Positions 42,528 through 59,315 of a stretch of 64,000 bases of DNA are shown one piece after another. Position 1 is the first letter of the stretch. Every line of letters begins with the position of its first letter. Made by a program: the position numbers and the translations under genes. The notes under the pieces are model-generated. The model saw nothing but the letters and a program-made list of their open reading frames with translations, made no database searches and was not told the origin of the DNA. Source of the DNA: Minisyncoccota bacterium (GTDB lineage Bacteria > Patescibacteriota > Minisyncoccia > Phycocordibacterales > UBA9973); assembly GCA_035548655.1 (NCBI GenBank), contig DASZSN010000019.1, positions 15,245-79,244 of the forward strand, written 5' to 3'.

Positions 42528-43037
42528 ATGACTTCTCGCAAAACACACAAGATAGTAGGCACCCTGTCATTTCTTTTGATTGTCTTTACCACGATGCTCG
42601 GCGCCACTGCTGCCATGGCAACATCCGCGCCATTAACCCTTCCGTTCGGCGGACGCATCATCTCCACGACCGTTCCGACGGTGACTTGTCCGGGTGGTAC
42701 CGCACTCGGCACTGGTCCGTTGGTACTCTTTAGCAATCTCACATCGCTAGGCTCGGCCGCATACTCAGCGGTCAATCCCGGCAATAGCCAAACCGGATTT
42801 CAGCAGACAGTCAATATTGCGAATGGCATTTATAACGCTATTCCGTATTTTTCCATATCAAAGACAAAGACCCCAAAAGTGGGGGACTGGATTTTGGGTC
42901 GATACAATGTCATCCCCGATGTTTCACTTTGTCAGACTGATGCGTTCGGAGCACCAGTGCCGTTCCCGGTGAAAAAAACGACAACATTCAACATTTCAAA
43001 TCATTCGAAAGGGCTCGGTAATCTGCAACAGCCATAA
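42528..43037 (+). CDS. Secreted hypothetical protein (169 aa)
   Basis: Signal peptide IVGTLSFLLIVFTTMLGATAAMA. First gene of a long co-directional cluster. Confidence 0.4.
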   Translation: MTSRKTHKIVGTLSFLLIVFTTMLGATAAMATSAPLTLPFGGRIISTTVPTVTCPGGTALGTGPLVLFSNLTSLGSAAYSAVNPGNSQTGFQQTVNIANGIYNAIPYFSISKTKTPKVGDWILGRYNVIPDVSLCQTDAFGAPVPFPVKKTTTFNISNHSKGLGNLQQP

Positions 43038-43041
43038 CTTC

Positions 43042-43935
43042 ATGGAGCACACCACAAGACCAAGCAAACAATTCATCATTCGCGGATCCATCGCGATCGG
43101 CGTTGTCGTTGTCGTACTTACACTACAGACATCATGGGTTAGGGGACTGTTTCACAAAAAGGCCACCTCAACAGAAGCACCTGCGCAGACGGTGGGTGAT
43201 CTATTAACAAAAGACTCCAACGGCAACGGCGTCCCCGATTGGGAAGAAAAACTCTGGGGGCTTGATCCGACCTCTCTGTACACTAACGGCGTCCCGAACA
43301 AGCAGATCATTGAGGAGAAGAAGAAAGCGCTTGGGGTGACCGATCAGACGAACAGCGAACCGGAAAATGAAACCGACGCGCTTGCTCGTGAGTTGTTTAC
43401 GGTTGCAACAGCGCTCGGTGAATCCGGGGACGTCAGCGATACGACGCTTCAAGCGGTCGCAAAAAAACTCGTACAATCAGTCACCTTGGGAGATTTTGGA
43501 AAGCAGTATTTGTTAAGTGATTTGCATACCGTGCCGACAACCACCGCGTCATTGAGCGCATATTACAAAACAGTTCAAAAGGCGGTTGCGAGCTACACCG
43601 CAAGTACCCCCGATATTGAGGTAGTTGTGAATGCACTCCAGACGGGAGACTTAAGCCAGGTGCCGACACTCGCAAATACCAAAACGGTGTATGAGACATT
43701 TTCAAAAAATCTTTCGACTATTTCGGTGCCGATTGGCATCGAACAATATCACCTTGATCTGGTGAACGGGCTCTCTGGCATGGCAGTATCGTTTAAATAT
43801 CTCGCTGATCTCGCGGACAACGGTGTAAATGCGGTGGTCGGCATGGCACTCTATCGAATCTATGACGATCAGATATCGGCGGCGACGAGTGCCCTGCACG
43901 ATTATTTCGTTCGGTACGGTATAATAAGTAGTTAG
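43042..43935 (+). CDS. Membrane-anchored hypothetical protein (297 aa)
   Basis: N-terminal TM GSIAIGVVVVVLTLQ. Confidence 0.4.
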   Translation: MEHTTRPSKQFIIRGSIAIGVVVVVLTLQTSWVRGLFHKKATSTEAPAQTVGDLLTKDSNGNGVPDWEEKLWGLDPTSLYTNGVPNKQIIEEKKKALGVTDQTNSEPENETDALARELFTVATALGESGDVSDTTLQAVAKKLVQSVTLGDFGKQYLLSDLHTVPTTTASLSAYYKTVQKAVASYTASTPDIEVVVNALQTGDLSQVPTLANTKTVYETFSKNLSTISVPIGIEQYHLDLVNGLSGMAVSFKYLADLADNGVNAVVGMALYRIYDDQISAATSALHDYFVRYGIISS

Positions 43936-58022: not shown

Positions 58023-58046
58023 TGGCCAATATAGTACAATAAAGCC

Positions 58047-59315
58047 ATGCGTCGTCGTATTTCAATCATCATTGTCATTCTCCTCGTCGGGGTAATTGCG
58101 TGGCGTGTCGCGGTGAGATTTAAACAACCAACCACAACCTCTCAAACAACTGGTGGAATATTTCAGACCATTTTTCCCGGCAGAAGCAGTACGCCATCGT
58201 CTGACACGATCACTCCATCGGGTACGATAGGAAACGCAGGGGACACTGTTTCTACAGGAGAGGCTGTCCCTTTTTCATCATTAAAACAACTCACTCACAG
58301 TCCCGTCGCCGGCCTCACGTTGTATACGAGTTCAAAAACAGTTACCGTTCCCGCGACTGACCCAAAGAAAAAATCGACCACTCAAACGCTCGTAGAACGA
58401 ACACTGCGATATGTTTCAAAAACCACCGGGTATGTATACGAAATAAAAGATGGTGGTATTCCACTTCAAATAAGCAACGTCTACATTCCAAATGTATACG
58501 AGGCATCGTTTGCCGATGGGGGAAAAACCGCATTGTTGCGTTTTTTACGAGACGACAGTGAAACAATCGCCACCTACAGCGTACCGATTCCCGACGCAAA
58601 TCCTGATGGTACCCGCACGCAAAAAAGCGGTACGTATCTTCCGGATGATGTTTTTTCTCTTGCGGTTTCTCCTGACGGAACGACGGTTGGTCGACTGACG
58701 TTTGGCGCGAACGGAACAACACTTTCGACCAGTGACTCGTCGGGAAACAAAGGAAAGACACTCCTGACCAATCCGTTTCATGGCTGGCTTCTGTCATGGC
58801 CACAACAGAATAACTTTTACTTACAAACAAAAGCATCTGCCTCCGCTGATGGATTTTTGTACCGAGTGAGTACGACAGATAAGCGTCTTCGAAAAGTGCT
58901 TGGAAACATTTCCGGGCTTACGACGTCGGTGAGTCCGAGCGGCACGTATGTCTTGTACTCACAAAGCGGGCAGGGGGGCTTTTTGACACGATTACTCAAT
59001 ACAAAAACCGGCGCCACAAAAGCGATCGCCGAGTCAATCCTCCCTGAAAAGTGCGCATGGTTAAAAAACGAGGATTTGATCTGCGCGGGAAACGACTCAG
59101 TCCCGCAAGGGCAATATCCGGACGATTGGTACATGGGGCTTGTACATTTCTCTGACAAGCTGTATCACATTTATACAAGTGCGGCTGTGATCGACACAAT
59201 CTACGACGGCGGAGATCAGTCATTTGATGCAACAACCCTTACAGTCGACGAAGACGCACGTGTCGTTTATTTCATAGACAATGGAACGGGAGCATTGTGG
59301 CAATTTTCGTACTAA
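58047..59315 (+). CDS. Membrane-anchored hypothetical protein (422 aa)
   Basis: N-terminal TM ISIIIVILLVGVIAW and a probable beta-rich ectodomain. Confidence 0.4.
   Translation: MRRRISIIIVILLVGVIAWRVAVRFKQPTTTSQTTGGIFQTIFPGRSSTPSSDTITPSGTIGNAGDTVSTGEAVPFSSLKQLTHSPVAGLTLYTSSKTVTVPATDPKKKSTTQTLVERTLRYVSKTTGYVYEIKDGGIPLQISNVYIPNVYEASFADGGKTALLRFLRDDSETIATYSVPIPDANPDGTRTQKSGTYLPDDVFSLAVSPDGTTVGRLTFGANGTTLSTSDSSGNKGKTLLTNPFHGWLLSWPQQNNFYLQTKASASADGFLYRVSTTDKRLRKVLGNISGLTTSVSPSGTYVLYSQSGQGGFLTRLLNTKTGATKAIAESILPEKCAWLKNEDLICAGNDSVPQGQYPDDWYMGLVHFSDKLYHIYTSAAVIDTIYDGGDQSFDATTLTVDEDARVVYFIDNGTGALWQFSY

Follow-up and report, generated by a model that had tools for sequence, protein, structure and literature searches.

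Patescibacteria carry type IV secretion systems (T4SSs) that a 2025 review describes as unique among monoderm T4SSs. In the Saccharibacterium Southlakia epibionticum, the T4SS cluster is essential for epibiotic growth as judged by transposon sequencing (Tn-seq; Wang 2023, PMC10633639), and no T4SS before that of Patescibacteria had been reported as essential for the bacterium carrying it to survive. The S. epibionticum system resembles Gram-positive conjugation systems, but has pilins and is without recognisable relaxase or coupling protein (PMC10633639). VirB4 was found in 2,417 of 3,035 Patescibacteria genomes, as a clade nested in the MPF_FATA class (Quinonero-Coronel 2025, PMC12102498). 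The same survey names TrsD as the commonest virB4 neighbour, with PrgI/VirB3 and VirB2-like pilins nearby; VirB6 and VirB8 are seldom detected, VirB6 being hard for hidden Markov models (HMMs) in several classes, relaxases are nearly never present, type IV coupling proteins (T4CPs) lie far from virB4, and in Paceibacteria the T4SS adjoins dnaA, dnaN, rnpA and ksgA (PMC12102498). Here we describe a 13-gene cluster of this kind in a 64,000-nucleotide stretch of a Minisyncoccota bacterium genome (assembly GCA_035548655.1, contig DASZSN010000019.1, positions 15,245 to 79,244), referred to below as the window; positions are those within the window.

With a probability of roughly 80%, and less for its details, we read the cluster as a chromosomal, relaxase-less T4SS of the Patescibacteria type in a Paceibacteria (Nomurabacteria-like) genome. 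In common with the published system (PMC12102498, PMC10633639) are a VirB4 related to MPF_FATA, adjacent TrsD and PrgI/VirB3, a VirB2-like pilin domain near virB4, a VirB6 candidate hard to detect by sequence, the lack of a relaxase, a distant T4CP homologue and the chromosomal site beside ksgA, rnpA, dnaA and dnaN. The original prediction for this DNA, made from its letters alone, had likened the gene inventory to reduced T4SSs of small-genome episymbionts, a likeness borne out by gene content, missing relaxase and origin-proximal site. The window thus holds a further Paceibacteria copy of an already published system rather than a new one. It is a clean and complete example in which all gene boundaries were checked. 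Seven surface proteins that are conserved along with the system can be listed from it, and a structural model supports a candidate for the missing VirB6. The cluster departs from the published descriptions in three respects: a small pilin gene array in Saccharimonadia contrasts with a single hairpin inside a 677-aa protein with a wall-hydrolase domain, an IVP/Avd-like gene lies between trsD and virB4, and neither paper describes the seven surface proteins.

A conserved 13-gene cluster beside the replication origin

The cluster (42528-59315) comprises 13 consecutive plus-strand open reading frames (ORFs) of 169, 297, 769, 285, 1305, 176, 136, 220, 112, 604, 317, 677 and 422 aa, with intergenic distances of -23 to 78 nt, placed between ksgA and the convergent yidC/rnpA/dnaA/dnaN origin region. 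Gene calling carried out independently on two further assemblies of this organism (Logan contigs, SRR12170516 and SRR12170511) returned the same list, confirming the 13 co-directional genes of the original prediction; the "several" 4-nt ATGA overlaps that it mentioned are real, but number exactly two (51105 and 55989). In these assemblies the 220-aa ORF (52102-52764) is called as 212 aa from ATG 52126, most likely its true start, and the 1305-aa ORF as 1287 aa (start M19, 47245) or, on the second of the two contigs, as 1295 aa. A hydropathy scan located a single N-terminal hydrophobic segment in each of the 169-, 297-, 769-, 285-, 317-, 677- and 422-aa proteins, in line with their earlier description as signal-peptide or membrane-anchored proteins. 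Upstream lie UvrD/PcrA (39771-41693) and RsmA/KsgA (41709-42518), whereas the convergent downstream genes encode YidC, YidD and RnpA, followed by dnaA (60847-62202) and dnaN. The cluster therefore adjoins the chromosomal replication origin amid housekeeping genes, and its GC content is in line with that of its flanks.

Conservation in related genomes, a check proposed together with the original prediction, was assessed by scanning one genome per species with the window VirB4. At least 598 genomes contain a relative, and the best 80 of these were compared further (VirB4 identity 71-88%; all labelled Paceibacteria, Nomurabacteria, Parcubacteria or similar). The 80 loci were searched by tblastn with the window proteins in a 10 kb flank each, so that genes far upstream of virB4 are undercounted. 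By this measure, trsD was found in 80 loci, the 317-aa gene in 78, prgI in 76, the 422-aa gene in 68, the 1305-aa gene and yidC in 63 each, the 677-aa gene and dnaA in 55 each, the 769-aa gene in 42 and the 297-aa gene in 33. TrsD is encoded next to virB4 in all 80, with prgI directly upstream of trsD in 76. The order ksgA-169-297-769-285-1305-176-prgI-trsD-virB4-317-677-422-yidC(-)-dnaA is kept, for example, in loci L003, L004, L005, L010 and L020 (RAAC4_OD1_1). The cluster is far from a chance arrangement, and its gene order recurs in dozens of other genomes. Because this order is kept from ksgA to dnaA across related genomes, we conclude that the cluster is a vertically inherited chromosomal operon and not a mobile element. 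An integrated conjugative element or its remnant was considered and rejected on the grounds of the housekeeping flanks, the even GC content and the wide synteny.

A split VirB4 ATPase with TrsD and PrgI partners

Three conserved genes follow one another in the cluster, separated only by the inserted 112-aa gene treated further below:

51714..52124, plus strand: PrgI family protein, VirB3 homologue, 136 aa (Pfam PrgI PF12666)
52126..52764, plus strand: TrsD/TraC-like protein, 212 aa (NCBIfam VirB4_plasma, TrsD and CD1110; Pfam PF26593)
53199..55013, plus strand: VirB4 ATPase, 604 aa (conju_CD1110 profile, P-loop_TraG, AAA_10)

The 604-aa protein matches the NCBIfam profile conju_CD1110 with E=7.1e-111 and 371.7 bits (cut-off 325), covering model positions 183-733 of 752, and is further matched by Pfam P-loop_TraG and AAA_10. 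Its translation shows the Walker motifs A (GAGKS) and B (VVDEAW). For the Gram-positive (MPF_FATA) class, CD1110 from CTn2 serves as the prototype. By its profile match, the protein is a VirB4 of this Gram-positive, CD1110-like type, as had been proposed, and the assignment of its small neighbour as a PrgI/VirB3-like membrane protein likewise stands, with a Pfam PrgI match of E=1.3e-11 (45.4 bits, cut-off 27). Since the match begins only at model position 183, this VirB4 is without the N-terminal ~180 residues of a full-length Gram-positive homologue. The preceding 212-aa protein, counted as a gene in the original prediction but not recognised there as TrsD, matches VirB4_plasma at positions 105-233 (E=7.6e-12), TrsD (3.3e-6) and conju_CD1110 at positions 2-116; precomputed Pfam annotation assigns it to PF26593 (TraC-like). 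These profiles make it a homologue of the N-terminus of complete Gram-positive VirB4 proteins, the very region that is absent from the 604-aa protein. The ATPase is hence split over two genes, one for the TrsD-like homologue of the N-terminus and one for the core of VirB4. That trsD might be a duplicate of the N-terminus of the window's own VirB4 was rejected, as BLASTP finds no similarity between them and TrsD fits the region that the 604-aa protein lacks.

NCBIfam scans also gave weak, partial matches of VirB4 to CedB (E=2.7e-7) and CedD (0.008), which bear on the possibility that the machine works in reverse, importing DNA or nutrients and drawing building blocks from the host like archaeal Ced or Helicobacter ComB. 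Patescibacteria lack nucleotide, amino-acid and lipid synthesis (PMC10633639), and the wall-cutting domains on an external component of the cluster, described below, would suit breaching of a host. The Ced matches, however, are far under the cut-off and confined to the P-loop region, and no homologues of Ced membrane components were seen. In S. epibionticum, moreover, the T4SS is essential and independent of ComEC, whereas ComEC-dependent natural transformation is not essential (PMC10633639; 2025 review), which argues against simple DNA uptake, though not against import of other cargo. We consider import unlikely and retain the reading of the cluster as a Patescibacteria-type secretion system.

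A structural candidate for VirB6

Two genes upstream of prgI, the cluster encodes its largest protein:

47191..51108, plus strand: polytopic protein of extended VirB6-like type, 1305 aa, or 1287 aa with the probable start at 47245 (topology, modelled core)

It consists of a signal peptide, an extracytoplasmic domain of ~450 aa, a membrane core with ~7 hydrophobic segments at residues 499-809 (hydropathy) and a Lys/Glu-rich coiled-coil tail of ~500 aa. Sequence searches did not connect it to known VirB6 proteins. Neither Pfam nor NCBIfam returned a TrbL/VirB6 (PF04610) match, a 13-sequence profile of the membrane core searched against PDB and Pfam at E<=10 gave none, and none of 42 more distant family members matches TrbL/VirB6 in Pfam. 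The family itself is very large and comprises 21,139 cluster representatives at E<=0.001. Residues 420-835 were modelled with AlphaFold at a mean pLDDT of 68.5, with most blocks of the helical core at 70-88. Searched with Foldseek against 350,542 PDB chains, the modelled core has TrwI/VirB6 of R388 at ranks 1 and 2 (probability 0.98 and 0.95, E ~0.09), and DotA of the Dot/Icm system is also among the best structural matches.

The VirB6/TrbL-like topology noticed in the original prediction is accordingly upheld by the polytopic core and by the modelled matches to TrwI/VirB6 and DotA, but every sequence search was negative. With members of the VirB6 family (TrwI of R388, PDB 7o3v and 8rt9; DotA, 9ngy) the protein shares a polytopic core of at least five helices, here encoded together with VirB3 and VirB4, and a VirB6-like modelled fold; the large hydrophilic extensions recall the "extended VirB6" of Rickettsiales as presented in the 2025 review. 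It differs in being much larger, with its ~450-aa external domain and ~500-aa coiled-coil tail; by sequence, neither the single protein nor a profile detectably resembles PF04610 or any solved VirB6. Because of the structural match, the topology, the position before prgI and the large hydrophilic extensions, we regard the 1305-aa protein as a putative VirB6-like channel subunit, an assignment that these features together support moderately.

A VirB2-type hairpin followed by varying wall-enzyme domains

The gene two positions after virB4 encodes a protein of composite architecture:

55989..58022, plus strand: 677-aa pilin-hairpin/endolysin-like protein (T4SS_pilin, PDB 7q47, PHROG endolysin)

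The protein was previously listed as signal-peptide or membrane-anchored, which its N-terminal segment supports, but the pilin hairpin had gone unrecognised. A signal peptide is followed by an N-terminal domain without family matches, a hairpin of two membrane segments (residues 421-439 and 460-478) and a C-terminal endolysin-like domain (PHA02564/lysozyme fold). Among ten scanned homologues, T4SS_pilin scores above the cut-off in three (27.0-32.1 bits) and sub-threshold in four more, and two weakly match TrbC/VirB2. A hairpin HMM run against all six-frame ORFs found no other such hairpin and no standalone small pilin gene in the window. With ~400 aa ahead of the hairpin and ~200 aa behind it, the protein as encoded is not a small pilin subunit. 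To judge from the signal peptide and from the positive charge of the loop that joins the helices, the domains on either side of the hairpin would be extracellular.

Residues 529-615 resemble endolysin (PDB 7q47, E=0.004; PHROG endolysin, 1.2e-6). The entry 7q47 is the Enc34 endolysin, which has a lysozyme-like fold and measured muralytic activity (PMC8943055). It is the N-terminal half of the Enc34-type (PHA02564) endolysin's catalytic domain, including the RGIRNxNxGN motif, that aligns with the window protein. Both proteins pair an enzyme domain with a two-helix membrane domain, yet the domain order is reversed, with the hairpin first in the 677-aa protein, and the Enc34 enzyme belongs to phage lysis rather than to a secretion system. 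The C-terminal domain may be an active wall-cutting enzyme.

Across related loci, the conserved part of this protein is the hairpin region only (~residues 376-500), detected in 55 of 80. A C-terminal domain common to the orthologues was rejected, as phmmer with the window domain found nothing in 55 positional orthologues. Wall-enzyme Pfam domains are nevertheless frequent, occurring in 44 of 72 database homologues and representing eight families (VanY 20, NlpC/P60 8, SLT 4, SLT_2 4, YkuD 3, Peptidase_M15_4 2, Amidase_2 2 and SLT_4 1). Those found in the ten scanned homologues all follow the pilin hairpin or lie in the C-terminal part, and two of the ten carry Ig/FN3/TIG-like matches ahead of the hairpin. 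We define a positional orthologue as the gene between the 317-aa and 422-aa homologues; C-termini of 32 of 50 such genes could be assigned, to seven families. The domain after the pilin hairpin differs even between close relatives, with at least seven peptidoglycan-enzyme types in positional orthologues. Where VirB4 is 84-88% identical to that of the window, the types are NlpC/P60 (L003, L004 and L007), SLT_4 (L005), VanY (L006), SLT (L008) and SLT_2 (L010), compared with the endolysin-like domain of the window. The literature searched contains no mention of a pilin-hydrolase fusion or of such domain swapping.

Two explanations of the swapping can be offered. Any wall hydrolase may fill a VirB1-like assembly role and be replaced by drift, which is possible; we weakly favour the view that the wall-enzyme module is matched to the wall of the host. 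Taken further, the VirB2-like "pilin" of Paceibacteria might be a membrane-anchored carrier of an exchangeable wall-lytic domain that cuts lineage-specific host peptidoglycan, and would so help to set the host range of a T4SS that breaches walls in order to feed or inject, a proposal that we regard as tentative and more doubtful than probable. If the module does fit the wall chemistry of the host, the hosts of uncultivated Paceibacteria could be predicted from it, and it could hint at how they are breached. Together with the structural support for VirB6, the swappable hydrolase module is a useful lead.

The same modules could also act on the wall of the cell that makes them, in an apparatus for surface attachment or wall remodelling without a translocon, where VirB4 would only assemble a pilin-hairpin or adhesin structure. 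Most genes of the cluster encode surface proteins (one possibly Ig-like, one possibly a propeller, one helical) and VirB4 is known to power pilus biogenesis (PMC12102498). Against such an apparatus stands the VirB6-like channel protein with its large and conserved membrane core, which 63 of the 80 loci retain. The system experimentally tied to adhesion of Saccharibacteria is the type IV pilus (PMC12102498, PMC10633639, 2025 review), of which PilB and PilC are also encoded in the window, and wall-enzyme swapping between close relatives is better explained by differing host walls than by the own wall. We consider an attachment apparatus highly improbable and continue with a translocating T4SS.

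Absence of a relaxase and of an adjacent coupling protein

Pfam and NCBIfam scans confirmed the earlier statement that the cluster contains no relaxase, no VirB11 and no VirD4 with a membrane anchor. Beyond the cluster, no relaxase domain and no VirB11 or VirB8 signature was found in the ~50 window ORFs scanned. A candidate coupling ATPase is nonetheless encoded elsewhere in the window:

26102..28843, minus strand: T4CP/VirD4-like ATPase, 913 aa (Pfam T4SS-DNA_transf, TraG-D_C, DUF87)

It lies 14 kb upstream of the cluster on the opposite strand and has a Walker A motif (GQTGTGKT), a soluble N-terminal region of ~500 aa and a sole hydrophobic segment within the ATPase domain, without N-terminal membrane helices. 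Its link to the cluster is unproven.

These findings bear on whether the cluster is a working conjugation or DNA-export machine, in which the T4CP-like ATPase would be the coupling protein and DNA would enter the channel through a relaxase that escaped recognition or by a route needing none. Its VirB4 belongs to the conjugative Gram-positive type, the VirD4/TraG-like ATPase within the window has intact Walker motifs, and relaxases may be too divergent to detect, a point left open by the survey (PMC12102498). The cluster has, however, neither a relaxase and anchored T4CP nor a mobile-element location; a T4CP-like gene is found within 10 kb of virB4 in 0 of 80 related loci, and the origin-proximal housekeeping setting with synteny across many genomes is unlike a mobile element. 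Only 109 relaxases were counted in the 3,035 Patescibacteria genomes, and the T4CP is non-essential in S. epibionticum (PMC12102498). Conjugation is therefore improbable as the function of this cluster.

Gram-positive MPF_FATA systems (pCF10 Prg/Pcf, CTn2 CD1110, pGO1 Trs and ICEBs1 Con) are among the closest known systems. The CD1110-type VirB4, PrgI and TrsD are shared, as are the logic of a monoderm envelope, without VirB7, VirB9 or VirB10, and a peptidoglycan hydrolase function in the cluster. The cluster differs in lacking a relaxase, a neighbouring coupling protein with membrane anchor, a recognisable VirB8-like protein and the context of a mobile element, and its VirB4 is split from the N-terminal region. 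Conversely, the MPF_FATA systems lack the VirB2-type hairpin present here.

Proposed mode of action

In the relaxase-less T4SS that we propose, VirB4/TrsD hexamers would dock on VirB3 and the VirB6-like channel in a single membrane and energise this channel. The surface proteins may build an envelope-spanning or cell-contact structure at the site of host contact, and the pilin-hairpin protein would present its peptidoglycan-cutting domain outside the cell. The wall opened in this way could be that of the cell itself or, more likely, that of the host. Rather than conjugating DNA, the machine would carry macromolecules such as proteins between the epibiont and its host.

Several observations weigh against this interpretation. 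No Paceibacteria T4SS has been studied experimentally, and essentiality was established in one Saccharibacterium only. Half of the genes, those for the 169-, 297-, 769-, 285-, 176- and 317-aa proteins, are without any functional assignment, and no VirB8-like protein was recognised by Pfam, NCBIfam or a profile of the 297-aa protein searched against PDB. The T4SS_pilin match of the window's own 677-aa protein (residues 414-480, E=2.3e-4, 21.6 bits) is under the cut-off of 26.6, and with its hairpin flanked by large domains the protein is unlikely to polymerise like a classical VirB2 pilin. Finally, the endolysin alignment spans residues 7-88 of the 170-residue chain only and stops short of the catalytic Glu131.

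Further proteins of the cluster

Seven further signal or anchor proteins and the acidic 176-aa protein hold their place in the operon across related genomes. Those not introduced above are:

42528..43037, plus strand: 169-aa protein with N-terminal signal or anchor (hydrophobic segment, residues 9-27)
43042..43935, plus strand: 297-aa bitopic membrane protein (membrane segment, residues 10-28)
43952..46261, plus strand: 769-aa secreted protein (signal peptide, S/T/Q-rich disordered region, mainly helical domain)
46264..47121, plus strand: 285-aa bitopic membrane protein with low-complexity linker (membrane segment, residues 7-25)
51105..51635, plus strand: 176-aa acidic protein (start overlaps the stop of the VirB6-like gene, ATGA)
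55039..55992, plus strand: 317-aa secreted protein (N-terminal hydrophobic segment)
58047..59315, plus strand: 422-aa membrane-anchored protein (N-terminal membrane segment)

A PHROG scan of the eight unassigned proteins of the cluster yielded the endolysin-like domain as its sole find, and neither the 169-aa nor the 176-aa protein has a Pfam, NCBIfam or PHROG match. The 169-aa gene is detectable by tblastn in 3 of 80 loci, at the same place after ksgA. The 297-aa protein carries a conserved motif (D-x-DGDG...DWEE), its gene keeps its position in the 33 loci where it was found, and a profile of 30 orthologues gave no match in PDB. None of the 79 homologues of the 769-aa protein is annotated; its model shows a long helical domain with conserved cysteines, for which structural searches returned generic helical matches only. 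The sole family match of the 285-aa protein is RodZ, with 17.7 bits against a cut-off of 208, and its gene is found in place in 6 of 80 loci. The 176-aa protein has no predicted membrane segment and is probably cytoplasmic, with its gene in the same position in 7 of 80 loci.

The two genes flanking that of the pilin-hairpin protein are more widely detected. The 317-aa gene directly follows virB4 in its 78 loci, and the protein has weak sub-threshold immunoglobulin-type and Invasin_D3 matches only, including those of a family profile searched against PDB. The 422-aa gene is the last before yidC in its 68 loci. A profile of this family matches TolB (7mx5) in PDB with E=0.013, and PD40, DPPIV_N or PG_binding_1 domains occur in a few orthologues; the weak match suggests that the protein is probably a TolB-like beta-propeller.

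An inserted gene and TATACT boxes in the spacers

One gene of the cluster stands apart from the secretion system:

52804..53142, plus strand: 23S_rRNA_IVP/Avd-like four-helix-bundle gene, 112 aa (Pfam PF05635)

Its product matches Pfam PF05635 with E=3.6e-35 and the PHROG "Avd protein of DGR" with 4.5e-8, and two independent assemblies contain the gene. In its place, a short trsD-virB4 spacer only is seen in the five closest relatives that were compared (L001-L004 and L010), and imperfect inverted repeats flank the gene in the window. On this evidence it is an unrelated insert and not a T4SS component. Homologues occur in 12 of 80 loci (L035, L063, L074, L051, L069 with two copies, L047, L078, L068, L066, L023, L071 and L072), always on the cluster strand and always in intergenic spacers, namely before prgI in nine loci, between trsD and virB4 in two, between prgI and trsD in one and before the VirB6-like gene in one (L069 counting with its two copies). 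This distribution suggests a small mobile gene that repeatedly lands in the spacers of the cluster.

The spacers used for insertion are those that carry TATACT boxes in the window. The octamer GGTATACT occurs in 7 copies compared with 0.39 expected, a number reached in 0 of 100 shuffles, at positions 1787, 3556, 13375 and 13942 on the minus strand and 39757, 51700 and 53182 on the plus strand. Every copy faces a gene, and five of them stop 5-7 nt short of a start codon (pilC, an NYN gene, uvrD, prgI and virB4). Related boxes at 47177 and 55029 precede the VirB6-like and 317-aa genes with no Shine-Dalgarno sequence in between, and the box before virB4 is kept in relatives. The octamer looks like a -10 element for leaderless or near-leaderless transcripts, from which it would follow that the cluster has internal promoters. 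A scan of the cluster for sigma-70 promoters and terminators gave counts no better than chance.

Other genes in the window

A wall hydrolase with two LysM domains and Peptidase_M23 is encoded on the minus strand at 38553-39557, just upstream of uvrD, at a distance of 3 kb from the cluster; it was also seen beside uvrD in a single related locus (L002). Proteins of the LysM/Peptidase_M23 type were counted among VirB1-like candidates in the survey (PMC12102498). A type IV pilus block on the minus strand (551-7082) encodes PilC (T2SSF, 551-1780), PilB (T2SSE and MshEN, 1801-3567), a PKD-domain protein (3641-4723) and an 801-aa protein (4677-7082). In the latter, a signal peptide is followed by a long N-terminal stretch that matches no family, an internal membrane hairpin of two helices (residues 384-428) and a C-terminal domain, a layout reminiscent of the 677-aa pilin-hairpin protein.

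Two patches of low GC content, 36001-38000 (0.355) and 16001-18000 (0.390), compared with ~0.47 elsewhere, carry ORFs without family matches and a DUF3800 protein (36021-36830), and may represent recently acquired DNA. Seven tRNA genes are located at 21933-23815 (Arg-TCG, Gly-GCC, Pro-CGG and Gly-CCC on the minus strand, as well as Pro-GGG, Pro-TGG and Gly-TCC), interspersed with two 120-aa ORFs, one of them encoding a UPF0102/Hjc-like nuclease.

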